Assembly: GCA_003558985.1 (NCBI GenBank)
Contig: PWNJ01000139.1
Span: 1,244 to 65,243 of the forward strand
Direction of reading: 5' to 3'
Length of the DNA stretch: 64,000 nucleotides
Source: a candidate division CSSED10-310 bacterium
GTDB taxonomy: Bacteria; CSSED10-310
Below, one piece after another: positions 2,738 to 15,697 of the stretch. Numbering within the stretch: the stretch's first letter is position 1; every line of letters begins with the position of its first letter. The position numbers were made by a program, and so were the translations under genes. The notes under the pieces are model-generated. The model saw nothing but the letters and a program-made list of their open reading frames with translations, made no database searches and had not been told where the DNA came from.

Positions 2738-5007
2738 AGGTCATCATCATTATCGCCAGCGCTCAACATCAATTCTGCTATTCCACAGGTTGCCAGTTGG
2801 CGCTCCATTATCTGCACTGAATCAAACCGTGCATCGGGATCCTTCTCAAGACACTTTAAAATCAGCTCATTCAGCCAAAGCGGAATCTCTGGGTTCAGCT
2901 CAACAGGCGGTATCGGCATACTCTCCACCTGATCAACAAGTATTTTCATTGCGTCGGGATTGGCAAACGGAGGTTTACCTGTTGCCATTTCGTATAAAAT
3001 GGTTCCCAAAGAATAGATGTCACTTCTGGGATCTGTCTGCTCACCTTTCGCCTGTTCAGGACTCATATAATCGGGGGTTCCAACAACAAACTCCGAATCA
3101 GATTCCATAGCGCTCTCAATTACTGTAGCTATTCCAAAATCAACCAGTTTTACCATACCTTCGTCGTTTATAAGAATATTTTGAGGTTTGATATCTCTGT
3201 GAACAATTCCACGCCTGTGAGCCGCCCATAATCCGCGACAGGTCTGAGTCATTATCGGGATGATTTCTTCAGTGGTCATAATACCTTTTGAGCGAATGAT
3301 CACCTTTAAATCCCGACTGTGAAAAAACTCCATCGAAATATACAAATGGTTTTCCAGCTTTTCAAAATCATACAACTGAACAACATTTTCATGGTGAACT
3401 TTTCTTGCTAATGTCACTTCCCGTTTGAAACGCTGGACCATTTCATGGTTATGTGTATATTTTGACTTTAACAGTTTTAGAGCCACTTCAAGGTTAAGCT
3501 CTTTGTCAAGAGCCCGATATACCTCTCCCATACCACCCGATCCGGCTTTGCTTTTAATAATATATCGTTCTGCAATGATTTTTCCTGGAGAAAACTGGTG
3601 CTGCATAGTTGTGGCATTATTGTTTCTGATCTCTGCCAAAATAGCAGCCAATCTGTCCAGACGATCTCGGACATCCTTAAAATCCAGATCATATGCTGAT
3701 AATTCCTGAAACAGTTTGTGTGCTTCCTCATACTGGCCCCTGGAATCAAAGCTGCATGCCAATTCATATTTTGTTTCCAGGTTATCAGGCGCAACACTCT
3801 CTTCGACCAGAAACTTCAGATATTGATCATAGGCAATCTCAAAACTGCCACGACGCAAAAAAGCTAATCCAAGCGCATTACGTAATGACGGCATTCGATC
3901 ACCCTGGCCCCAGGCTCTCTGAAGAACTCGAATAGCCTCATCAAGATTACCAATTTCCATCAGGATTTCGCCTGCTTTCAAAGGTTTTCCCGCTTGAGAA
4001 TATAGTTCCGCGGCTTTCTTTACATCACCAAGCTTCTCTCTCAATTCCGCCGCCTTTTCCACTTGACCGGTTTTTTCCAGTAAAGTGGAAGCACTGGCAA
4101 GATTATTTGTCTTAATAAACATTTCTATCGCTTTGGTAACATTGCTTGCCAAATGATAACGTTCTGCGGCACGACCATAATCTTCTGCACTCTCATATGC
4201 GCCTGCTGCCATTTCATGTTCACCGATTTCATCAGCAAGGTTCGCCGCTCTCACATACTGTCTTTGATTTAGAAGATTCTGTACTTTTAGCAGAGTGGCA
4301 TGTGTCTTTTGACCCGTTTCTTCGTAAATCTCGGCTGCAAGATCAAATCGCCCTGCTTTTTCAAGCCATGACGCTGCTTGAGCAAGATTACCTGTCTGTT
4401 TGCAAAGGGATACAGCTTTGGGGATATCATCAGCCTGGAAAAAATGATGTGCAGCAAGATCATATTTGTCTGTTTTTTCATAAGCCTTAGCCAGAAGTTG
4501 CGCTATATACTTTCTGGTTTTCTGAAGACTTTTATGAGGAGAATCTGTGTTAAACGCAAGATTTTTTATCTCTTTTTCCAGACAATTTATAGCCCGTTTG
4601 AAGTTACCCCTCTCCAGATACAATTCCCCTGCTTTCTGAAAGTTTCCAGCTCGTTCATACATTACTGCTGCATCAATAATAGCGCCCGATTTGTCATACA
4701 TATCTGCAGCCAGCAAAGGAAAGTCGGCTTTTTTATACATCTCTGCCGCTTTATAATACTCTTGCATTTGTGTATATAAATCAGCCGCTTTGACATATTG
4801 TCGGGCCTTTACAAGATATGCCGCAGAATCTTCCAGCCGCCCTAACCGTTTTAAAAGAGATGCTGATCGTTCATATGCCTTAGCCAAAGAATACATTTCC
4901 AAAGCCTTCTCATACTCACCAGCATCCTGATATACATCACCGGCCCCTTGATAATCTCCGGCTCGGTGGAGTTTTTGAGCAAGCCTTTGAAACTTCAAAA
5001 TACACAC
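2734..5007 (-). CDS. Hanks-type Ser/Thr protein kinase with the kinase domain at the C-terminus and an N-terminal 13-residue repeat / TPR-like solenoid
   Basis: All kinase motifs are intact: GSGGMGEVY (G-loop), VALKLLK (beta3 Lys), HRDIKPQNILI, DFGIA, GTPDYMSPEQ, DIYSLG. The N-terminal ~370 aa are AAxxYxxxGxxxK-type repeats. Confidence 0.9.
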   Translation of the reverse strand: MCILKFQRLAQKLHRAGDYQGAGDVYQDAGEYEKALEMYSLAKAYERSASLLKRLGRLEDSAAYLVKARQYVKAADLYTQMQEYYKAAEMYKKADFPLLAADMYDKSGAIIDAAVMYERAGNFQKAGELYLERGNFKRAINCLEKEIKNLAFNTDSPHKSLQKTRKYIAQLLAKAYEKTDKYDLAAHHFFQADDIPKAVSLCKQTGNLAQAASWLEKAGRFDLAAEIYEETGQKTHATLLKVQNLLNQRQYVRAANLADEIGEHEMAAGAYESAEDYGRAAERYHLASNVTKAIEMFIKTNNLASASTLLEKTGQVEKAAELREKLGDVKKAAELYSQAGKPLKAGEILMEIGNLDEAIRVLQRAWGQGDRMPSLRNALGLAFLRRGSFEIAYDQYLKFLVEESVAPDNLETKYELACSFDSRGQYEEAHKLFQELSAYDLDFKDVRDRLDRLAAILAEIRNNNATTMQHQFSPGKIIAERYIIKSKAGSGGMGEVYRALDKELNLEVALKLLKSKYTHNHEMVQRFKREVTLARKVHHENVVQLYDFEKLENHLYISMEFFHSRDLKVIIRSKGIMTTEEIIPIMTQTCRGLWAAHRRGIVHRDIKPQNILINDEGMVKLVDFGIATVIESAMESDSEFVVGTPDYMSPEQAKGEQTDPRSDIYSLGTILYEMATGKPPFANPDAMKILVDQVESMPIPPVELNPEIPLWLNELILKCLEKDPDARFDSVQIMERQLATCGIAELMLSAGDNDDDL

Positions 5008-5134
5008 CTCCAGCTAATGCAAGTCTATAATATACGGATTTTGCTCTCTCGTCGATAATGATTTGTGTCTTTTCATTTAACTTGAATTTTGTTAAAAATA
5101 GCAGATGGAAAAGATAGATTGACGGAGTGATGAA

Positions 5135-6112
5135 ATGCCGGCAAATTTAACACCTCAGTATAAAGCTGCAGAAGCACAGTATAAACAGGCTCAAACGGCT
5201 TCAGAAAAAATACAAGCTCTGGAAGAAATGTACCGTGCTATTCCCAAACATAAAGGTACCGAAAAGCTATGCGCCGATATCAAACAACGACTCTCAAAAG
5301 CACGTAAACAATTGGAACTGTCACACCGGTCTCAAAAAAAAGGAATTTCATTTCATGTCGCACCTGAAGGAGCTGCACAAATTGTTTTGGTTGGACCTCC
5401 TAACAGCGGAAAATCTTCAATTTTAGCTGGTTTTACAAATGCTAATGCGACGGTTGCTGACTACCCTTTCGCAACACAAAAACCTCTGCCCGGGATGCTG
5501 CACTGGGAAAATGTGCAGTTCCAACTGGTGGATTTACCACCGTTGTCTGACGAATTCTACGAACCCTGGGTACCCAGTCTGGTCCGGGTCAGCGATATGG
5601 TTCTTCTGGTTGTCAGTATGGATACCATTGATCAGGTCGATACCATTTTGAAAATAATGGATGATTGCAAAATTTCACTGGTAAACAACTACGCCAGTTC
5701 TGATTACCACGGCAGAATTGTAAAAATTCCAGCTATTATAGCAGCAACCAAAACCGATTTTCCGGATGCTGAAATCAGTCTTGAACTTCTGAAGGAAACC
5801 TGTGAGCATCTAAGCATATTACCCCTGTCAGGAAACAATCCGGGCGATGCTGTTATTCTGGGACGAAAAATATTTGAAACTCTTGAACTGGTCCGGGTAT
5901 ATACCAAAGCGCCAGGAAAAGATGCAAATATGAATCAACCTGTTATCGTCCGCAAAGGCTCCACGCTTATTGATGTTACCAGCGAAATACACAAGGATTT
6001 TGCTGAAGACATGAAATATGCCCGGGTTTGGGGTTCTGGCAAATTTGACGGACAGAAAATTCAGCGTGATTATATTGTTGAAGAGGGTGACATTTTTGAG
6101 TTTAAAGTGTGA
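5135..6112 (+). CDS. DRG/Obg-like GTP-binding protein with a C-terminal TGS domain
   Basis: G1 is GPPNSGKSS, G2 region is YPFATQKPLPG, G3 is VDLPPL, G4-like is ATKTD. The C-terminal RVYTKAPGK...YARVWGSGKFDGQKIQRDYIVEEGDIFEF is TGS-like. The N-terminal helical segment (KHKGTEKLCADIKQRLSKARKQL) resembles the DRG N-terminus. GGAG lies 8 nt upstream of the ATG. Confidence 0.8.
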   Translation: MPANLTPQYKAAEAQYKQAQTASEKIQALEEMYRAIPKHKGTEKLCADIKQRLSKARKQLELSHRSQKKGISFHVAPEGAAQIVLVGPPNSGKSSILAGFTNANATVADYPFATQKPLPGMLHWENVQFQLVDLPPLSDEFYEPWVPSLVRVSDMVLLVVSMDTIDQVDTILKIMDDCKISLVNNYASSDYHGRIVKIPAIIAATKTDFPDAEISLELLKETCEHLSILPLSGNNPGDAVILGRKIFETLELVRVYTKAPGKDANMNQPVIVRKGSTLIDVTSEIHKDFAEDMKYARVWGSGKFDGQKIQRDYIVEEGDIFEFKV

Positions 6113-6123
6113 TATAAAAAACC

Positions 6124-6573
6124 TCAAAAAGAATAGTCATTTTTAATCAGACGGGATAATTCAAAACTGCTTACAGTACCTACTATTCTGTTAACTTCGC
6201 GACCAAAACTGAACAAAAGGATAGTAGGCAATATGTCAATGCCATATTGTCGGCGACTTTCAGGATTTTCTGATATATTTAGCTCCGAGATAAGAATATT
6301 ATCCGGTTTATTCTCCATTTCCAGGCGAAAAAGAGTTAAAACCTTTTCACTTTCCTTTTCCCAGGGAGCCCAAAATAATACCATAACCGGTTTTTTAACC
6401 ATCATTATAAACTTGTCAATCGAAATATCGTCCAGAGGAAACATACCGGATGATGCTGTCGGAAACTGACAGACCGGGCAAAAAACCCGGTCTGTATCTT
6501 TATCTTTGTATACATGCGATTTTATTTCACATACAGGGCAGGTGATAAGAGGTGCAGAGGAAAAATCACTCAT
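6124..6573 (-). CDS. Thioredoxin-2-like protein (N-terminal zinc ribbon plus thioredoxin fold) lacking the CxxC active site
   Basis: The N-terminus carries CPVC...x17...CPVC. The thioredoxin-fold segment reads VLFWAPWEKESEKV where thioredoxins have WAPWCGPC. It also has the cis-Pro region GIDILPTILLF. It lies 2 nt downstream of the preceding membrane gene. Confidence 0.7.
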   Translation of the reverse strand: MSDFSSAPLITCPVCEIKSHVYKDKDTDRVFCPVCQFPTASSGMFPLDDISIDKFIMMVKKPVMVLFWAPWEKESEKVLTLFRLEMENKPDNILISELNISENPESRRQYGIDILPTILLFSFGREVNRIVGTVSSFELSRLIKNDYSF

Positions 6574-6575
6574 GA

Positions 6576-7280
6576 CTAATGCACTATTCCCAACCAGTCT
6601 TTAAAAATAAACACAAATCGACCAATTGCCAGTGAAATACGCGCCATGACTGTCAAACCGAATGAAGCTCCAAAACCTACCATTACAGCTAAAATTCCGA
6701 TATTGCTGACTGGCCTAAGAAAACCTTTGTGTTCTGCCGAGAAAAAGAAGTACACCAGAGTAGCTACAGTTGTCACAAAGATAAACAGTCCGTATATAAG
6801 GACCGACCAACTGCTGAAATCCGCTCTTGTCAGAATGGATGCTTCAAGCTGTCGGACAATAGATGCTTTGAAGGAGGCCGGTATAGCAATAGCTGTATAG
6901 TATCCCATAGTTATACCTATTGGAATACGAATCATCCATGAGATTTTCGGAATAAACCGGGTAATATACAGCGAGCCAACCATCATCGGTATAATAATGA
7001 AAAAGTTGTTGTCATTATAAGGATTTAAAACATTGAGTTCATCAAACGTAAAAAAGGCGGTTGTGAATCCCTGTTCCCGGGTCGTTCTGAAAGCGCCAAC
7101 CAGAGGATCAATCATATGGGGTATAACAACGTTGTACCACGACAGAACGATCGAATATCCGTTGGCAACACCAATAAACAGATGTTCTGCTGTTCGATAA
7201 AAGGCGTTATCATCATATAGAAAACTTAGAATCGCCAGCGTCAGAATTGCAGCTGTCCATGTCCAGAAATCTGTTGCCAT
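6576..7280 (-). CDS. Polytopic membrane protein (about 6 TM helices), unknown family
   Basis: I trimmed the start to the ATG (MATDFWTW...), which overlaps the upstream stop by 1 nt (TAATG) and is preceded by AGGAGG. The track ORF began at an upstream TTG (7325). Hydrophobic segments are spaced as about 6 TM helices. No motif was recognised. Confidence 0.7.
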   Translation of the reverse strand: MATDFWTWTAAILTLAILSFLYDDNAFYRTAEHLFIGVANGYSIVLSWYNVVIPHMIDPLVGAFRTTREQGFTTAFFTFDELNVLNPYNDNNFFIIIPMMVGSLYITRFIPKISWMIRIPIGITMGYYTAIAIPASFKASIVRQLEASILTRADFSSWSVLIYGLFIFVTTVATLVYFFFSAEHKGFLRPVSNIGILAVMVGFGASFGLTVMARISLAIGRFVFIFKDWLGIVH

Positions 7281-8188
7281 TATACACTCCTCCTGTTTTC
7301 TACGCGACGTTGCATGAAATAACAAAAATTTCCAATCAGAATCATTATGATGATTGCAATATGCGTTGCTGACTGGCTGCTCATGCCCTCGGTTGCCATC
7401 CTTCGTCCATCATCGTGCGGAAAATATTCAGCTATAAGCTGCTCATATTCCGCAGCTCCTTTCATACCTTCAAGCATTCCGGTCAATTGTCCTGAATCAA
7501 TATAAGGATAAAAATCCGCTGCTGAAACAGCAGTTATTCCCGCTGTTACCCTGATGCCAAAGCGTGCCTGAGCGAATGCGATGTATGTAATAGGCGTCGA
7601 GCTGGCTGATAACGACCCGATCATATCCATATTGCGATAGTTTCTAATCCGGTTATCCACCATGATCGGCATTGTTCTAAGGTCATCTCCATAAAAATCG
7701 CGCGGGAAAACGTCAAAGATATTTTCCCCAAGACCAAGAATTGGCACAATCGGTGGCGGCGTCCATCCCAGAAACACGAAATCCTCACCATAAACGACGC
7801 GACGTCCAACACCCCGTGCCGCTCTATTATTAAACTCTGTAGCTACCTGATTCAAGGCCTGCTCAGCTAAACCCAGTGATGCGGGAAACAGACACAAAAC
7901 AAGCACTTTTATATCACGATGAAAGCAATGACGAATCCAGGACACAAGCATTGGGTAAAGCTCTGGCTGATCCTGCGGATTCAGATCGGCTGATATCAAA
8001 AATACTCCGTTTTCATTTGGAAAGTTGTCTATCGCCTGAAACATTGCGCCGGTCGTTCTTTCAGCAACCCGGACAGGTTGGTCAAATGGAAAGATAATCG
8101 GTACAATCATAACAACAGCAACCATCAGGTATATTATTCTTCTGTCAACCGACATCATTTTTTGCCAGACAGTTTTTTCTTCCTGCAT
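7280..8188 (-). CDS. Bitopic membrane protein: N-terminal TM, ~245-aa soluble domain, C-terminal TM; unknown family
   Basis: TM segments are IIYLMVAVVMIVPIIFPF and ATHIAIIIMILIGNFCYFM. The start overlaps the upstream stop by 1 nt. No motif was recognised. Confidence 0.7.
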   Translation of the reverse strand: MQEEKTVWQKMMSVDRRIIYLMVAVVMIVPIIFPFDQPVRVAERTTGAMFQAIDNFPNENGVFLISADLNPQDQPELYPMLVSWIRHCFHRDIKVLVLCLFPASLGLAEQALNQVATEFNNRAARGVGRRVVYGEDFVFLGWTPPPIVPILGLGENIFDVFPRDFYGDDLRTMPIMVDNRIRNYRNMDMIGSLSASSTPITYIAFAQARFGIRVTAGITAVSAADFYPYIDSGQLTGMLEGMKGAAEYEQLIAEYFPHDDGRRMATEGMSSQSATHIAIIIMILIGNFCYFMQRRVENRRSV

Positions 8189-9138
8189 TATTCATCACCT
8201 CCGCCCAGCCAGGCACGTTCAATACCCAGAATAATTTTGAAAGATGTTGCTGAAGCGCCCAGACCAACTCCAATCATAATACCCCTTTTGGATGCCAGAT
8301 TAGGCACATCAAGAATCCATTGCCGCAAATCATGAAGCCAGGGTATAAAAACAGTCGCAAGTGGTATTTGACCCAACATTACAATGAATGCCGACACCAG
8401 CAATATGCCCGCATGAAGATTTCTCATTCTGAACGCCCGATATGCAGCAGAACACATGTAAAAAGCCAGCATTGCAAACATTGTCGAACCACAGGGAACC
8501 ATGATCCCTTCATACAATGCCTGCAAACTGATCTTGAAATCCGCTCTGTACCTTACTGTTTCACCCGATACCGGACTGATCATTGGGGGTATCGGTTCAT
8601 CAGCCATCTCGTATCCAGCATGTTGTAACTCAATTTCCTGGCGAAGCAATGCTGCATGATATCGACTTAAAAACACCTGTTCACCTTCCGGAGCATCCAT
8701 TTCCCGTGGTAAATCCATTAGAGCTTTGTCAGGATCAGCATAACTTGCGGGATTTGACATAAATGTATTCAGTTCGTCACGATTCATAAAGGCATATACT
8801 TTGCCCTCATGAGCCCCTAACATTGTTCCTCCAAAAATCGTCGGAAGACGTCCCTCACCACGAACACCGCCAAAAAGACCAACAAACGTCGTTACAACCA
8901 AAGCTATCAGCATCACATAACTGTATTGCCAAAAGCGGGCTTTTCGTCTGATTTTTTGAGAATGATGAAAAATAAGGCTCCCCAAACCCAGAATGATTGC
9001 GAAAGCTCCTACAATTAACAGCAGTCTGTTTCGAAGGAGATTATCAAAATTTCTGACAGGGGTTTTACCGACAAAATACGATATTCCACCCCATATCGCT
9101 AAAATGAACATGATTGTCATTGGAATCTTGCGTTTCAT
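8188..9138 (-). CDS. Polytopic membrane protein (about 6 TM helices with a ~110-aa hydrophilic insert), unknown family
   Basis: Three N-terminal and three C-terminal hydrophobic helices flank a hydrophilic central segment. It starts 4 nt after the upstream stop. Confidence 0.7.
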   Translation of the reverse strand: MKRKIPMTIMFILAIWGGISYFVGKTPVRNFDNLLRNRLLLIVGAFAIILGLGSLIFHHSQKIRRKARFWQYSYVMLIALVVTTFVGLFGGVRGEGRLPTIFGGTMLGAHEGKVYAFMNRDELNTFMSNPASYADPDKALMDLPREMDAPEGEQVFLSRYHAALLRQEIELQHAGYEMADEPIPPMISPVSGETVRYRADFKISLQALYEGIMVPCGSTMFAMLAFYMCSAAYRAFRMRNLHAGILLVSAFIVMLGQIPLATVFIPWLHDLRQWILDVPNLASKRGIMIGVGLGASATSFKIILGIERAWLGGGDE

Positions 9139-9142
9139 TATG

Positions 9143-10405
9143 TTACCTCACTTCAACCCAGCCAACTGTATCAATGCCGAACAGCACTGCCAGCAGCGTC
9201 AGAATAACCATTGCCAAAAGGAATGAAAGTTTTCCGTAATCTTGTGCTTTCAGCGTACCCAGCAACATGGGTTCACGAGATAGATAAGCGCTGGCCGCAT
9301 ATAATTCTTCACCTATCAAGGTGTAATCACAGGCAGTAATAAAAAATGGCAACTGCGCGACAGAATCCGTGCCAGCAATCTGAACAGCTCCTGTACTGGC
9401 GCCGGTTTCTGCCATAATCAGTGACTCAGCCCAGAAGTATCCCAGTAAAAATATGGTTGCCGGCTTTTCCCGGACCATAATTCCATCAACCCCGGCCGCA
9501 AAAGCAAACTGGTCAGGAACCAGATAAAACACACTATCCGGATCATACGCATCGGGACGACCTTCAGAAGCATACGTCTCCTTTACAATTTCCCGGGCTA
9601 TCGTATAAACTATTGGATCCCTGTTTGGACAAATAATCTTGACATCATAATGAACTGTTCGGCGAGCAACCTCCCCAAGAATGTTTAGCGCTGCCAGTGT
9701 TCCGACATCTTCAATCCCTGAAAGACCTGGAACATAAAGAACAGGTTTACCCATCTCAGTCGCACGACCAATGGCATCCTCAACTGCTGTTAAGCCGGAT
9801 ATCCTTCTCACAAATAATTCAACACCGCGTCGCGCTGCCTGAATAAACCAGAGGAGGAAGAACACGAAAATCATGATGGCAATAAGTACCGGAACCTCAC
9901 CAAGTTTTAACCAATGATCCAATGGCGCTACCGGATCCGTTGGTTCGGACCTCGCTACACCTTCCGGATAAATCGCTGAAACCCGAAATCTGTACAAAAC
10001 ACGGTTCGTTAACTGCGAAACCCGGTACTGTGTCATAACTGTTTCCGTTACTTCATGCCACAAACCATCTGGACCCGAAATTTCCAACAAATAACGTGTT
10101 GGAGTTTTTTCAGGCGGAGGTTCCCAAACGACCATAATCGCTTCACCGTCATCATGTGGAACATCAAATGCGGTAACATTCTGAGGTGGCATCAATTTTG
10201 AGTCTGCCACCGGTTCAGTCTCAGTTGCACTTAGAGCATCCTCGGACATTTCCACGAAAACTTCTGTCTCATTAACAAAAGGTTCCATGCCCGTATCATC
10301 ATGCACTCCAGCGTTTGTATCTGGAAACATCTGATCTTCTGGAAGCTCCTGTACAGCAAAAACCGGGACTGCTGCCAAGATAAAAATCAAAAAACAGTAT
10401 TTCAT
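9143..10405 (-). CDS. Signal peptide / FN3 ectodomain / TM / ~215-aa soluble domain / C-terminal TM protein, unknown family
   Basis: I trimmed the start to the ATG (MKYCFLIFILAAVPVFAVQ, signal-peptide-like), which is preceded by GGGAGA; the track start at 10420 is TTG. The fibronectin type III pattern is PPQNVTAFDV...IMVVWEPPPE...YLLEISG...YRFRVSAIYPEGVARSEP. TM helices are VPVLIAIMIFVFFLLWFIQAA and LSFLLAMVILTLLAVLFGI. Confidence 0.75.
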   Translation of the reverse strand: MKYCFLIFILAAVPVFAVQELPEDQMFPDTNAGVHDDTGMEPFVNETEVFVEMSEDALSATETEPVADSKLMPPQNVTAFDVPHDDGEAIMVVWEPPPEKTPTRYLLEISGPDGLWHEVTETVMTQYRVSQLTNRVLYRFRVSAIYPEGVARSEPTDPVAPLDHWLKLGEVPVLIAIMIFVFFLLWFIQAARRGVELFVRRISGLTAVEDAIGRATEMGKPVLYVPGLSGIEDVGTLAALNILGEVARRTVHYDVKIICPNRDPIVYTIAREIVKETYASEGRPDAYDPDSVFYLVPDQFAFAAGVDGIMVREKPATIFLLGYFWAESLIMAETGASTGAVQIAGTDSVAQLPFFITACDYTLIGEELYAASAYLSREPMLLGTLKAQDYGKLSFLLAMVILTLLAVLFGIDTVGWVEVR

Positions 10406-10624
10406 AAAAATGTCTCCCAATTGGTCGCATCTGCCAATGCGAAGGAATGCATAGTAACCAAATCATTCAGTACCTTCAACCTTCTTCGTCAGATAATTTG
10501 CGTATACTGACCTTCGCGACCTGTTTTTCATGTTTCATTTGAAATCAAGCTCCCAAATCTGTAATACTAACGCAGGCACAAGGTAACCCAAAAGCCCCTG
10601 AAAAAAAAAGGTAACATATTATTA

Positions 10625-11962
10625 ATGGAAAACAATCTGCCAAAACTGAATAAACAAAAACCGGTATGGAACGGTCAAATGTTTTTCGATATGGAACCCA
10701 TAATTCGCTCCATGCAAAAAATTATTTTGCGCCAAACAACTCGCATACCTGCGGATAATCACATAAACATCCGTTTCATCAAAGAATTTGAATACTCATC
10801 CAACTGGGCCGAAATAATGACCTCGTGGCTAAGCAATGACTCCAGGTTTTTTCGCATTCCGCATGGAAAACTGCCTGTCCATCATAACCCGGAAGCCATC
10901 AGGGATTTATATAAAATCGAAAATCAACTTGCGTCTGCTCCATTTTCACAATTAAACGGATTTGAATGCAGGAAAATCGTCGAACGTATGAAGCATTTTA
11001 AAGTTACGGATATTGATGATTCGCTTCTGGATGCAATATATGATGCTGGCAACTGGGTTATTTCTGAATCAATTACTGAAGAAAACTGCCGTCGAGAGCT
11101 CGAAATGACTCAAGACTCAATTCAACGTGCTGAATTATTCATGATAATGGGAAATGATGTCCAGGCATATCGGGAGTTCGTTAATATTACTCCGGAGGAA
11201 AGCAGCAACCCTGAGAATGCTTTGGCTTTGGTAAATCTTGTAGAACGCTATGAAAGTCCAAAATCTGCGATCAGAATTCTGCGCAAATGGTTTCTGCTGG
11301 AAATTATACTGCATCCACTCCCATTTGATCTTGTTTTTGATCTGCTGACAGACAGAAAAAAGGTGGAATCTTCACCTAGAACACGCTATTTGCAATCGCT
11401 ATTACTGCAATCCGAAACAATGTCTCCAAAAGATTTATACAATCAACTATTACTGGTAATTCCGTCAAACACATTGATAAAACCGAACTTGCAGGATGTG
11501 GACCGAAGACTCAAATCCTTTGGATTGAGCCTTGAAAGTATGGATCTTGTCCTGGACGAAAATGAATCAGTAAATATTTGTGCTTTGCTTGGTGGAGTAA
11601 CAGATCAATTGCTGCACCTTTCTGATTTGGCGCATCGGGCCAAAAAAGAAAAACTGGCGGTCAAAGCATTGGAAAGAGCTATCCTGTCCTGTTTTGTCCT
11701 TATTAATCTGCCAGAAAATCTGACTGCCTGTTCGGATGCTCTGGAAAGTTGTACTAAGCATATGATCATCAATGATTACCTAAATGACTTTCATGATTTA
11801 ATGGAAGAGTTTTTTGATGATTCGGCAATAAGCTGTAATCATCACTTGATTGAAAAACAAATTGCTGCTCTGGGTAAGCTGGCCAGACATAAAGTGACGG
11901 ATTATTATCAGGAGGAATCAGATGGAATGCCCGGTATGCCGAGAAAGCATGGTTATAATTGA
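10625..11962 (+). CDS. Hypothetical, predicted all-helical cytoplasmic protein; no family recognised
   Basis: Long ORF with no competing ORF. AAGG lies 9 nt upstream of the ATG. It overlaps the next gene by 41 nt. No TM segment or catalytic motif was seen. Confidence 0.6.
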   Translation: MENNLPKLNKQKPVWNGQMFFDMEPIIRSMQKIILRQTTRIPADNHINIRFIKEFEYSSNWAEIMTSWLSNDSRFFRIPHGKLPVHHNPEAIRDLYKIENQLASAPFSQLNGFECRKIVERMKHFKVTDIDDSLLDAIYDAGNWVISESITEENCRRELEMTQDSIQRAELFMIMGNDVQAYREFVNITPEESSNPENALALVNLVERYESPKSAIRILRKWFLLEIILHPLPFDLVFDLLTDRKKVESSPRTRYLQSLLLQSETMSPKDLYNQLLLVIPSNTLIKPNLQDVDRRLKSFGLSLESMDLVLDENESVNICALLGGVTDQLLHLSDLAHRAKKEKLAVKALERAILSCFVLINLPENLTACSDALESCTKHMIINDYLNDFHDLMEEFFDDSAISCNHHLIEKQIAALGKLARHKVTDYYQEESDGMPGMPRKHGYN

Positions 11963-12329
11963 GTATGAATCAATAGAACTGGATTACTGTGTGGGATGTA
12001 TGGGAATCTGGTTTGATAGTGGTGAAGTTGAATTGCTTCTTGAAAAAGCTGGAGTTTCGGTTCCATCGGATGCATTGAAACTTGTAGATGCAAGTTCTGA
12101 ATTGCGAGAGCTTTCCAGGCCATGCCCGTTGTGCAGAAAAAATATGCGAAAAGTTTCACCGCCTGAAACCGGTATAATACTTGATCAGTGCCCTGACAAT
12201 GAGGGCTTGTGGTTTGACGCAGGTGAAGTCGGTGAAACTGTGAAACAAATGGCTGGCGCCAGCAGCAACATTGTGATTCAAGTTCTACAAGATTTTCTGG
12301 GAAAAGCCGTTTCTTCAAATAATGAATAA
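11922..12329 (+). CDS. Double TFIIB-type zinc-ribbon protein
   Basis: There are two copies of the pattern CPxC...(D/Q)xC...G(I/L)WFDxGEV: CPVCRESM...DYCVGCMGIWFDSGEVELL and CPLCRKNM...DQCPDNEGLWFDAGEVGE. From memory this matches the Pfam zf-TFIIB (PF13453) family. Confidence 0.7.
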   Translation: MECPVCRESMVIIEYESIELDYCVGCMGIWFDSGEVELLLEKAGVSVPSDALKLVDASSELRELSRPCPLCRKNMRKVSPPETGIILDQCPDNEGLWFDAGEVGETVKQMAGASSNIVIQVLQDFLGKAVSSNNE

Positions 12330-12403
12330 ATCTGTTGTTTATTTTTTCAACAATGAATATATTTCAAAAACGAATCGTAGATTGGACAATGGAGGGTTAA
12401 ACA

Positions 12404-12967
12404 ATGACAGCTTTAACGGTTTTATTGCTTATGTTGATCATCGCCGCGATTCTGGTTTTCTGGGTTTTCAGTCTGTACAACGGACTGGTTAGATTACGAA
12501 ACGCAGTTAAAAATGCATGGTCACAAATTGATGTTCAACTGAAAAGACGACACGACCTGATTCCAAATCTGGTAGAAACTGTAAAAGGATTCGCTTCTCA
12601 CGAAAAAGATACGCTTGAACGCGTTATCTCTGCCCGCAATTTCGCTATGAAAGCATCCGGCCCAGCCGAAGCTGGAAAAGCTGAAGGCGCTCTGTCCGGA
12701 GCTCTGAAATCCCTGTTCGCAGTCTCTGAAGCATATCCTGATCTCAAAGCCAATCAGAATTTTCTGGCGCTGCAGGAAGAACTGACATCAACCGAAAATA
12801 AAATCGCTTTTTCTCGACAGGCCTACAACGATTCAGTAATGCGATATAACAACAAAACAGAAGTCGTGCCATCCAATATCATAGCCGGTATGTTTGGGTT
12901 TAAAGCAGCAGAATTTTTTGAGATTGAACTTCCCGAAGAAAGGGCAGTTCCCAAAGTCAGTTTCTAA
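12404..12967 (+). CDS. lemA: LemA family membrane protein
   Basis: N-terminal TM helix followed by [50 protein letters not shown], the characteristic LemA core. GGAGGG lies upstream. Confidence 0.88.
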
Positions 12968-13001
12968 CGCGCAGATTCGGTCTTTTTCAAGGAGCTGACT
13001 T

Positions 13002-14288
13002 GTGTGGGAGATAATCCAAAGCAATAAACGAAAATCATTGTTGCTCGTTTTTCTGATGGCAGCACTGCTGATGCTCATCGGCTCCACATTTGGAGAGTAT
13101 TTCGCCGGTTCCTATCTTACAGGACTTTTTATAGCATTTATCATATGGATCATATTAAGCCTGGTTGCCTATTTTCAGGGGAAAAACATCTTTTTAAGTA
13201 TTTCCGGAGCTAAAAAAATCAGCAAGGATGATCATCCTCGATTGTTTAATATTGTTGAAGAAATGAAAATAGCTTCTGCCCTGCCGGCTATGCCCGATGT
13301 TTATATCATCGACGATCCGGCTCCAAATGCATTCGCTGTCGGACGCACCCCCGAAGACGCCGCCGTGGCAGTCACCACAGGATTGTTAAACGTTCTTAAC
13401 AGAGATGAATTGCAAGGCGTTGTTGCCCACGAAATCGGCCACATTGTCAACCGTGACACAATGTTCATGTCCATGCTTGCAATAATGCTTGGAACTATCG
13501 TAATGCTCGCAGAAATTGCCCGGCGTTCCCTGTTTTTTGGCGGTGGAAGAAGACGGTCCAGATCCTCATCACGGGGGGGTGGAGGTCAAGCTCAGATTGT
13601 AATTCTTGTTGTTGGATTGCTGTTAATGATATTGGCTCCACTGCTTGCACGACTAATTTACCTCGCTGCTTCCCGAAAAAGAGAATACCTGGCAGATGCC
13701 TCAGCAGCCGTGTTTACTCGTTATCCGGAAGGTCTGGCAAGCGCTCTTGAAAAAATCTCGGTCTCACCAGTCAAAATGCGAAAAGTCAATCAGGCAACTG
13801 CACCCATGTTTATTATTAATCCCATGCAAAAACTCCATGAAAGCAAAGATTCGCTTTTCAGCACACATCCAGCCTCCAAAAATAGAATCGGTATTCTGCG
13901 TGCAATGGCTGGCGGTAGCAGCTACCTGAACTACAATCAAGCCTATCAATCGGTAACAACTGATAAACACTCCCTGATTCCCAAATCTGTTTTGAAATCT
14001 CCGCCTGCCATGGATGAAAAAAAGAAAACCGCCGAAAAGAGTCAACCCGATATGACCCAAATGATTACAAGAACAGTTATGACCGGAGCGATTATATCTG
14101 ACTCAGCTAAACCCAATGAACCGGAAAACCATGTCGAACGCGTTCGGGAAACCAATGATGCATTATGGAAGTCACAAGGTTATAGATTTATTGACTGCAA
14201 TTGCGGCGCAAAATTAAAGGTTCCACCGGACTACAAACGACAAAATGTCGTCTGTTTACGATGTCATGAATCCCATTCGATAAAATGA
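13002..14288 (+). CDS. HtpX-like M48 zinc metallopeptidase with a ~140-aa C-terminal extension ending in a zinc ribbon
   Basis: HEIGHIVNRD (HExxH), a downstream REYLADASAA (third-ligand Glu region), four hydrophobic helices, a Gly/Arg/Ser linker, and a C-terminal CNCGAKLKVPP...CLRCH. GTG start. Confidence 0.85.
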   Translation: MWEIIQSNKRKSLLLVFLMAALLMLIGSTFGEYFAGSYLTGLFIAFIIWIILSLVAYFQGKNIFLSISGAKKISKDDHPRLFNIVEEMKIASALPAMPDVYIIDDPAPNAFAVGRTPEDAAVAVTTGLLNVLNRDELQGVVAHEIGHIVNRDTMFMSMLAIMLGTIVMLAEIARRSLFFGGGRRRSRSSSRGGGGQAQIVILVVGLLLMILAPLLARLIYLAASRKREYLADASAAVFTRYPEGLASALEKISVSPVKMRKVNQATAPMFIINPMQKLHESKDSLFSTHPASKNRIGILRAMAGGSSYLNYNQAYQSVTTDKHSLIPKSVLKSPPAMDEKKKTAEKSQPDMTQMITRTVMTGAIISDSAKPNEPENHVERVRETNDALWKSQGYRFIDCNCGAKLKVPPDYKRQNVVCLRCHESHSIK

Positions 14289-14299
14289 CAATAAGGCTG

Positions 14300-15697
14300 C
14301 TACTGAATATAACCCAACGCCTGCAATCGATTTAACAATAAATCGTCTTCTTCATTAAATGTATCGGAGACTGACTCTGAAATCATATAGTGATCTGATT
14401 CATATGATGAAATACGTTGAATGGGACGCTCAGATGTATAATCAACATTAAAAAAATCAAGTCGGGGACCAGCAGCAAAATCATCTGCAACCGGTAAACC
14501 CAGCAAATACAAAATCGTCGGCAAAATTTCTGTAACATGAACATTGCTGATTTTTTTTCCTTCAACAACCTCTGGACCCGCAATTACAAACACTCCATCC
14601 GGTTTGTCTGAATGCTGTCCAGTCGGTGCGGTATAAACCAGATTAACCGAAAACGGATCTGTATCAAATGAAGGTCCCGGAGGAATTTCCGGAGCTTTTG
14701 CGGGGTCCCTCTGATCAAGCGGCGTGTCTTCTGCAAGTATCAGAAACTTCTGTGGTTCTTCCGCATCTTCCATTCCATGATCTGAACAAATTATCACATA
14801 AGTTTCTGAAGATATTGAATCCAGTAATTTTCCCAGAAAATCATCATACAGTCTGCACCATTCCATAAGCAGATGTGAGAAATCTGGCAATTCGGAATTA
14901 TCCGGACTGGTCAGAAATCTGAAAAAATTGTGACCCAAAGCGTCCAGAGAGTAAAAATAAACTGCAGATAGTGATCGCTGTTGCTGATGAAACAGGTGGC
15001 GTGCAATATTCTTGAACTGCACATCCAGTTGATATTCACGCAAAAGCACCATTAATTTCCATTGCCACTCGGGTTCCAGTTGTTCATATCTGAATCGATC
15101 AATACCTGTAAGGTTTTCAATATCTTTTAATGTAAATGTTTCCTGGAGCATGTCGACCTGAACAGCCAACTCGGCAGGCCATGTCCGACGATCCCGCTGA
15201 CGCTGAAACGCGTAATCTGAAACCATTTCACCGTTAACAGTCTCAACAGGCCAGGTTACTGGCCAGCGAACAATGCTAACATCCAAACCTTCACCGCTTA
15301 CAATTCGCCACATAGGCTTGACCTTGGATGAATAGGAACTTAATGGTCGCATCTGTCCTGTTTCAGGATCTTTTTCAACCACTGCAGTAATACCATGATC
15401 ATCAGGCATTCTTCCGGTTGCTATTGTTGTCCAGACCACCGGTGTCAAAGTGGGCAAAATCGTTTCTAAAGGTCCGTGCGCTCCCTGTTCGATCAATGTT
15501 TGTAAACGAGGCATTTTCCCTTTTTGAATCGCTGGATAAAACAGATCCCAGGTGCCACCATCAAATCCGATAATCAAAACCCTGGGCGAAGCATCATCTA
15601 CAAACTCAGTGTTCCCAGTCGAATACCGATCATCGCAACCAATAGAAAACATAATAATCAGCGCCATGACAACTGTTACAATCTTTTGCATTCTCAA
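14300..15697 (-). CDS. Lipoprotein of the alkaline phosphatase / type I phosphodiesterase-nucleotide pyrophosphatase superfamily
   Basis: Lipobox-like MALIIMFSIGC. Metal-site motifs are LIIGFDGGTWD and ICSDHGME, plus GHNF. This is typical of the PF01663-type fold. Confidence 0.75.
   Translation of the reverse strand: MRMQKIVTVVMALIIMFSIGCDDRYSTGNTEFVDDASPRVLIIGFDGGTWDLFYPAIQKGKMPRLQTLIEQGAHGPLETILPTLTPVVWTTIATGRMPDDHGITAVVEKDPETGQMRPLSSYSSKVKPMWRIVSGEGLDVSIVRWPVTWPVETVNGEMVSDYAFQRQRDRRTWPAELAVQVDMLQETFTLKDIENLTGIDRFRYEQLEPEWQWKLMVLLREYQLDVQFKNIARHLFHQQQRSLSAVYFYSLDALGHNFFRFLTSPDNSELPDFSHLLMEWCRLYDDFLGKLLDSISSETYVIICSDHGMEDAEEPQKFLILAEDTPLDQRDPAKAPEIPPGPSFDTDPFSVNLVYTAPTGQHSDKPDGVFVIAGPEVVEGKKISNVHVTEILPTILYLLGLPVADDFAAGPRLDFFNVDYTSERPIQRISSYESDHYMISESVSDTFNEEDDLLLNRLQALGYIQ

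Follow-up and report, generated by a model that had tools for sequence, protein, structure and literature searches.

The window analyzed here, a stretch of 64,000 nucleotides (nt) of contig PWNJ01000139.1 from a candidate division CSSED10-310 bacterium, carries on its minus strand five tightly packed genes, A to E, with the four-gene cassette A-B-C-D at their core. The five-gene locus is a real chromosomal operon, and many uncultivated phyla, presumably diderm, keep the cassette in order and tightly coupled. Its products are four integral membrane proteins, whose synthesis in a fixed ratio is almost certain and which probably form an undescribed membrane machine. We favor, at low confidence and with a probability of roughly 40%, a self-contained transporter or translocase that is coupled to an ion gradient and lacks its own ATPase. 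DUF6754, the family of A, is the sole database name within the cassette, and no core protein is linked to any studied protein.

Conserved Order of the Four-Gene Cassette

Relatives of A were sought with a profile in one genome per species, and at least 594 species genomes contain one; the best 80 of these were examined. The synteny set consisted of the open reading frames (ORFs) of 83 loci (numbered in the form L001), assigned by iterated hidden Markov model (HMM) searches. The hosts are uncultivated bacteria of at least 10 candidate phyla. Among the best 80 genomes are WOR-3, Stahlbacteria, Edwardsbacteria, Poribacteria, Eisenbacteria, Fermentibacteria, Latescibacterota, Zixibacteria and Cloacimonadota, as well as the anammox Planctomycetes Scalindua and Brocadiaceae. 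The cassette is 45–60% identical between phyla. A itself is 48–57% identical, being kept, for example, in candidate division WOR-3, and it has more than 8000 close homologues.

The initial annotation had put forward the adjacency of homologues in other genomes as a check, and for A to D this adjacency is strongly conserved across phyla. In almost every locus with room on the contig, the genes follow the order A-B-C-D on one strand. The arrangement ABCD is found in 52 of the 83 loci, ABCDABCD in 6 and a triple set (ABCDABCDABCD, or the same ending in ABC) in 2, while incomplete cassettes were found at contig ends. The median gaps are 9 nt between A and B, −1 nt between B and C and −4 nt between C and D, with 89–94% of the junctions at 30 nt or less. 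Since such short gaps recur across 83 related loci, the tight packing in the window is not a matter of chance, and the conserved medians indicate that translational coupling is itself conserved. The earlier view of one tightly coupled unit is thus upheld. The view of a five-gene system stands for A to D and falls for E, which is limited to the window and two related loci (L001 and L086). The conserved unit is four genes, not five.

In the window, the genes and their spacing agree with the initial description of 1-nt overlaps or gaps of 2–4 nt, as read from the ORFs and junctions. Gene A (9143-10405, minus strand) encodes 420 amino acids (aa) from the ATG at 10405, and its open frame reaches a TTG at 10420. 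A Shine-Dalgarno-like GGGAGA lies at 10413-10418, 7 nt 5′ of the ATG, and therefore the ATG at 10405 is the most likely start, whereas the TTG merely opens the frame. The stop codon of A (TAA) ends at 9143, and after a 4-nt gap gene B (8188-9138, minus strand; 316 aa) begins with the ATG at 9138. B and C share a TAATG overlap of 1 nt at 8188, and so do C and D at 7280; gene C (7280-8188, minus strand) encodes 302 aa and gene D (6576-7280, minus strand) 234 aa from the ATG at 7280. The stop codon of D ends at 6576, 2 nt before the ATG of gene E at 6573 (6124-6573, minus strand; 149 aa). Shine-Dalgarno-like runs precede A, B, C and D. A promoter and terminator scan gave no convincing internal terminator or other signal within the operon, and the GC content of 0.42–0.45 is the same as in the rest of the window. 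The hairpin proposed for the leader of A exists as an inverted repeat, TCGCAT-N6-ATGCGA, at 10425-10442 (minus strand). Its fold is not significant, the leader folding no better than shuffled sequence (z = −0.65).

Some loci depart from the common arrangement. In L004, L014, L027, L058 and L065, A stands without downstream B-C-D although the contig goes on, and in L022 (5759-8059) two A genes precede a single BCD set.

Whole ABCD cassettes occur in tandem, in two or three copies, at L013, L018, L039, L043, L045, L046, L055, L079 and L080. The tandem copies are only 45–62% identical and fall in deep, separate clades of a neighbor-joining tree; the repeated cassettes within one genome are old. 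Between copies in the same genome, identity is 62% for DUF6754, 52% for B, 49% for D, 45% for C and 38% for the ectodomain of A, which indicates that the periplasmic parts diverge fastest. A WOR-3 chromosome of 2.3 Mb (CP070705.1) carries at least 4 A genes (L013, L073).

The flanks of the cassette vary by lineage and include shikimate kinase with DHQ synthase, PurF, M23 peptidase, transketolase and Wzi. The 134 flanking proteins that were scanned match 162 Pfam families without a recurrent partner, PurF being the commonest at only 5–6 occurrences, and no ATPase recurs among them. Having no recurrent neighbor, the cassette is autonomous. Proteins A to E themselves match no ATPase family in Pfam or NCBIfam. 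No relatives of A were found in plasmid and phage collections, and with PADLOC A to D gave no matches and E weak matches only (E-value of 0.007 or above). A mobile element and a defense island are therefore rejected.

Clustering of 258 flanking ORFs, together with the Pfam scans, revealed only lineage-specific housekeeping genes, with a sole exception. In 9 of the 83 loci, from several phyla, the genes immediately upstream of A and in its orientation encode an ASKHA (actin-fold) protein of the GlmL/MutL family, about 600 aa long, followed by a conserved partner of 375 aa (L053 at 3802-6852, L039, L044, L046, L055, L063, L068, L077 and L081; Eisenbacteria, Scalindua and others). The partner has weak RnfC_N and biotin-lipoyl-like matches. 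Neither protein is encoded in the window, and neither has a PDB relative. The GlmL/MutL-family protein may be a cytoplasmic partner for one subfamily of the cassette.

Genes for Wzi, an outer-membrane capsule assembly protein, lie directly downstream of D in two WOR-3 loci (L002, at 11289-12947, and L003). Further Wzi homologues are found one gene further on in L011 and, in L083 (Fermentibacteria), on the opposite strand beside an orphan A.

Subunit Architecture

The architectures that had been read for A to E are supported by Pfam, AlphaFold2 (AF2) models, Foldseek, charge bias and alignments. The earlier statement that the genes belong to no recognizable family is right for B, C and D; A, in contrast, combines fn3 with DUF6754, and E is thioredoxin-like.

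Protein A begins with a signal-like N-terminus and continues through an acidic linker and a fibronectin type III (FN3) module to a transmembrane (TM) helix, beyond which lie a further domain, about 215 aa long, and a second TM helix at the C-terminus. The FN3 module (aa 73-156; 9938-10189, minus strand) matches Pfam fn3 (PF00041) with an E-value of 9.8e-7 and 29.3 bits against a cutoff of 25. In the AF2 model, aa 71-160 have a predicted local distance difference test score (pLDDT) above 90, and Foldseek relates them to FN3 structures with a probability of 1.00. The DUF6754 region (aa 164-408; 9182-9916, minus strand) comprises a TM helix, an alpha/beta domain and then a hydrophobic stretch. 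It matches PF20539 with an E-value of 3.1e-111 and 371 bits against a cutoff of 27, aligning to profile positions 4–248 of 257, and all 120 of the listed A homologues have a precomputed PF20539 match. From the lysine/arginine bias, including the ARRG..VRR run after TM1, the FN3 module is predicted to lie outside, in the periplasm, and DUF6754 in the cytoplasm. An exact match to A is absent from the assembly collection, the nearest entries being 99% (P0001) and 82% identical. A literature search for DUF6754 or PF20539 returned no paper mentioning either, and the titles and abstracts of the literature on CSSED10-310 do not concern the cassette.

The ectodomain of A reaches 450–760 aa in Cloacimonadota and some other lineages, with no Pfam match except an occasional fn3. 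Whole A proteins of about 975 aa (L069, L075, L076), 1023 aa (L064) and 700–760 aa (L026, L028) were observed.

DUF6754 is the most conserved part of the cassette, with about 50 invariant alignment columns, many of them acidic or polar, and one invariant Cys. Two invariant glutamates, E327 and E333, lie within the hydrophobic stretch. Such conservation would suit a membrane-bound enzyme complex, for instance one acting on an envelope lipid or glycan by modifying or flipping it, in which DUF6754 would be catalytic and the product would cross the membrane by way of B, C and D. The AF2 model of this region might be taken the same way, as it has a beta-alpha-beta, Rossmann-like pattern; the model is poor, however, with a pLDDT of 50–80 and below 50 for aa 297-354. 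Genes for a sulfatase, a phosphodiesterase or an LPG_synthase_TM protein also lie nearby in L084, in L025 and in the window (14303-15697), but envelope-enzyme neighbors of this kind are sporadic. No member matches an enzyme family in Pfam, NCBIfam or the PDB, and no nucleotide- or cofactor-binding motif was recognized; the GRATEMGKP segment of A does not fit the Walker A pattern. Foldseek with the AF2 model and PDB sequence profiles gave only FN3 matches for A, and a profile of DUF6754 alone found no solved PDB relative. We therefore regard an enzyme complex as improbable.

Protein C holds a domain of about 240 aa between two TM helices. Its termini are rich in lysine and arginine, from which both are predicted to lie inside and the domain in the periplasm. 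Protein B has six hydrophobic segments, with N- and C-termini predicted inside (from an alignment and loop charge bias), and a hydrophilic insert of about 110 aa (about aa 100-210; 8509-8841, minus strand) between TM3 and TM4 that is predicted to be periplasmic. Protein D has about 6 TM helices, and its AF2 model is all-helical. Leaving the insert aside, B and D are each proteins of about 210 aa with 6 TM helices, and both have Gly/Ala/Ser-rich conserved helices and invariant polar residues. D also has an invariant carboxylate, E32, in a hydrophobic stretch.

The close homologues of C (850) and D (1055) are all annotated as hypothetical, those of C without a Pfam assignment, and a profile search (E-value of at most 1e-3) places the C family in 3644 clusters at 50% identity. 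B, C and D of the window have no match in Pfam or NCBIfam, and 24 B, 32 C and 23 D family members scanned singly against Pfam gave nothing even at E-values up to 1. Searches of B, C and D against PDB sequence profiles also gave nothing. The D model, built from 101 sequences, is moderate (pLDDT 73.9; predicted template modeling score, pTM, 0.44). For D, a fold match was taken to be a Foldseek E-value below 1e-3 or a TM-score above 0.5 to a PDB chain; with this moderate model, the best E-value was 1.7, and TM-scores were 0.16–0.21. Together with PADLOC, these searches bear out the original reading that B and D have no confident match to a characterized transporter, respiratory or secretion family.

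The same results bear on the idea that the cassette is a very divergent member of a known multisubunit family that HMMs miss, such as an Rnf/Nqr-like pump or an ABC-2/GldF-GldG-like system without its ATPase. By analogy, the subunit sizes and layout may resemble RnfA/E with RnfG/RnfB, or GldF with GldG, and the nine loci with the weak RnfC_N/barrel-sandwich partner and the GlmL-family protein upstream of A might point in the same direction. However, no Rnf-Nqr, FMN_bind, ABC2_membrane or ABC_transp_aux match appeared among the singly scanned B, C and D proteins, the alignments of B, C and D contain no invariant Cys and no conserved Cys or His cofactor motifs, and the structural search with D stayed at or below 0.21 in TM-score. 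A hidden relationship of this kind appears to us very unlikely.

Some C-family proteins reach 630–840 aa, with a CARDB domain inserted or fused (P0365) or with HEAT repeats (P0474); these are either real fusions or gene-calling artifacts.

The suggestion that A and C are distant paralogues is rejected at the sequence level. BLASTP gave no significant match, and hhalign probabilities were 1.6% and 0.7% with locus- and database-derived profiles, the alignments covering TM helices only. Judged by eye, the predicted strands and helices of the two soluble domains follow one another in similar order, and the two may still be structural paralogues. Paralogy of B and D is likewise not supported (hhalign probability 3.6% local, 0.8% global).

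Protein E has an N-terminal CxxC...CxxC zinc ribbon followed by a thioredoxin fold, the latter matching PF00085 with an E-value of 1.9e-10 and 41 bits against a cutoff of 23.5. Over aa 11-138, E aligns with the NCBIfam TrxC model at an E-value of 4e-11, and the score is below its equivalog cutoff, as it is for all NCBIfam equivalogs. In all three orthologues (window, L001 and L086), the WCGPC active site, with its CxxC motif, is replaced by FWAPW(E/Y). Because of this replacement, E is redox-dead and cannot be a disulfide reductase. E is present only in the window and these close relatives and is absent from other phyla and already from cassettes at 54–59% identity. The nearest named organisms belong to candidate division CSSED10-310.

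In the alignment, the insert of B is present only in the window and L001, and B of L086 has 310 aa, compared with 220–224 aa in L084 and L085. The insert and E co-occur, only in the CSSED10-310-like lineage, and may be an elaboration specific to that lineage in which the two are linked, although the prediction places them on opposite membrane faces.

Proposed Membrane Complex

We propose that A to D assemble into one inner-membrane complex, with two TM helices from A, six from B, two from C and about six from D, or about 16 in all. A would supply the highly conserved cytoplasmic alpha/beta domain (DUF6754), while the periplasmic face would be formed by the FN3 module of A and the roughly 240-aa domain of C, joined by the insert of B in the CSSED10-310-like lineage. 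In that lineage, E would be added as a redox-dead zinc-ribbon thioredoxin, probably a cytoplasmic adaptor or chaperone. In an ion-coupled transporter or translocase, the path across the membrane would be built from B and D, and the invariant carboxylates E327 and E333 of A and E32 of D would help to handle ions or substrate. The periplasmic modules, which evolve faster, would determine what is captured, and the ancient paralogous cassettes of one genome would handle different cargo. We rank this reading first because of the Gly/Ala/Ser-rich 6-TM pair, the carboxylates in hydrophobic stretches, the lack of a conserved neighbor and the several ancient paralogues per genome.

Several observations weigh against a transporter. 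No subunit is tied to one by homology or fold, and no substrate-related genes are linked to the cassette among the scanned flanks. The joint assembly of A to D is drawn from co-translation and co-inheritance only, and charge bias gives no side for the orientation of D. The extreme conservation of the cytoplasmic domain of A would fit a catalytic site or a hub for protein interactions just as well. The AF2 models are moderate at best (the pTM of D and the pLDDT of DUF6754 given above), so that the missing fold matches are weak evidence.

The same carboxylates in hydrophobic segments, with periplasmic modules adjoining the membrane, could also belong to an envelope machine or tether driven by the proton motive force, like Tol-Pal, ExbBD or GldLM. 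In such a machine, the membrane subunits would serve as a stator, and the periplasmic FN3 and C domains would act on peptidoglycan, the outer membrane or a surface layer. The named hosts are candidate phyla or anammox groups, which are generally regarded as diderm, and the ectodomain of A is highly variable in size, up to about 700 aa in Cloacimonadota. The Wzi genes downstream of D in L002 and L003 and nearby in L011 and L083 (WOR-3 and Fermentibacteria) would also suit an envelope role. On the other hand, no member gives a Pfam or NCBIfam match to a MotA_ExbB/TolQ-type stator, nor the OmpA-like or TonB-like signal expected of the periplasmic domain of a stator partner, which has a single TM Asp. 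The flanks contain no conserved outer-membrane partner, and the number of paralogous cassettes, up to 3–4 in some small genomes, would be unusual for machines of this type. An envelope machine is thus unlikely.

A and C are predicted, from charge bias, to face opposite sides of the membrane, and an inverted (A,B)/(C,D) topology is a speculative extension of this prediction. A wider proposal, which we put forward tentatively and consider doubtful, is that A-B-C-D represents a new class of ATPase-less machine. Its subunits would form a hetero-oligomer with about 16 TM helices, a conserved domain in the cytoplasm and another domain in the periplasm, acting as an ion-coupled transporter or energy converter, with a possible origin by an ancient (A,B)/(C,D) duplication. 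It would have been kept, often in several specialized copies, by many uncultivated FCB-related phyla, by Poribacteria and by anammox bacteria, and one subfamily would have recruited a GlmL-type actin-fold ATPase.

The host lineages dominate many anoxic sediments, digesters, sponges and anammox reactors. The 45–60% identity between phyla and the wide spread point to a central physiological role in these lineages. Finding the function of the cassette would annotate thousands of "hypothetical" genes at once and might bring to light a new principle by which uncultivated bacteria transport substances across membranes or maintain their envelope.

Local Context and Comparison with Known Systems

The flanks of L001 and L086 match those of the window in a TGS GTPase, a TPR-kinase and a zinc-ribbon protein, and L001 also shares LemA and an M48 peptidase. 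Divergent from A in the window lies a 445-aa ORF without a Pfam match (10625-11962, plus strand), which has a counterpart of 440–448 aa in L001 and L086. In these two loci, a NUDIX-UDG fusion gene stands between that ORF and A; this gene is missing from the window. The segment at 11922-14288 encodes a double Zn_ribbon_TFIIB protein, whose gene shares 41 nt with the ORF before it, and then LemA and a peptidase of the M48 (HtpX-like) type. A type I phosphodiesterase (14303-15697) lies on the strand opposite to the LemA and M48 genes. Positions 11922-15697 look like an ordinary membrane-stress neighborhood, common to L001.

Among described families, A is a full-length member of DUF6754 (PF20539), whose usual label is "fibronectin type III domain-containing protein". 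Pfam holds the family as a name only, without function, structure or paper, and does not record the three orphan membrane proteins that accompany it.

E resembles E. coli thioredoxin 2 (TrxC) in that a CxxC...CxxC zinc finger at its N-terminus precedes the thioredoxin fold. It differs in its score, which is below the equivalog cutoff, and in having WAPW at the WCGPC site.

The likeness to Rnf and Na+-NQR is one of analogy only. Both would combine two 6-TM subunits of about 200 aa with bitopic subunits bearing periplasmic or cytoplasmic domains in one tight operon (RnfA/E, RnfG and RnfB). The cassette differs in having no detected sequence or fold similarity, no flavin mononucleotide (FMN), iron–sulfur or flavin motifs, no RnfC/D equivalents and no redox partner. 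With the GldA/F/G system, C shares the hairpin of TM helix, large periplasmic domain and TM helix seen in GldG, and B and D are sized like ABC-2 permeases. In contrast to that system, the cassette contains no ATPase, C is half the size of GldG, and neither A to E nor the scanned members of the B, C and D families match ABC2_membrane or ABC_transp_aux. With fold tests that comprise one moderate model (D) and one poor model (DUF6754), the cassette lies outside the known kinds by every test run.

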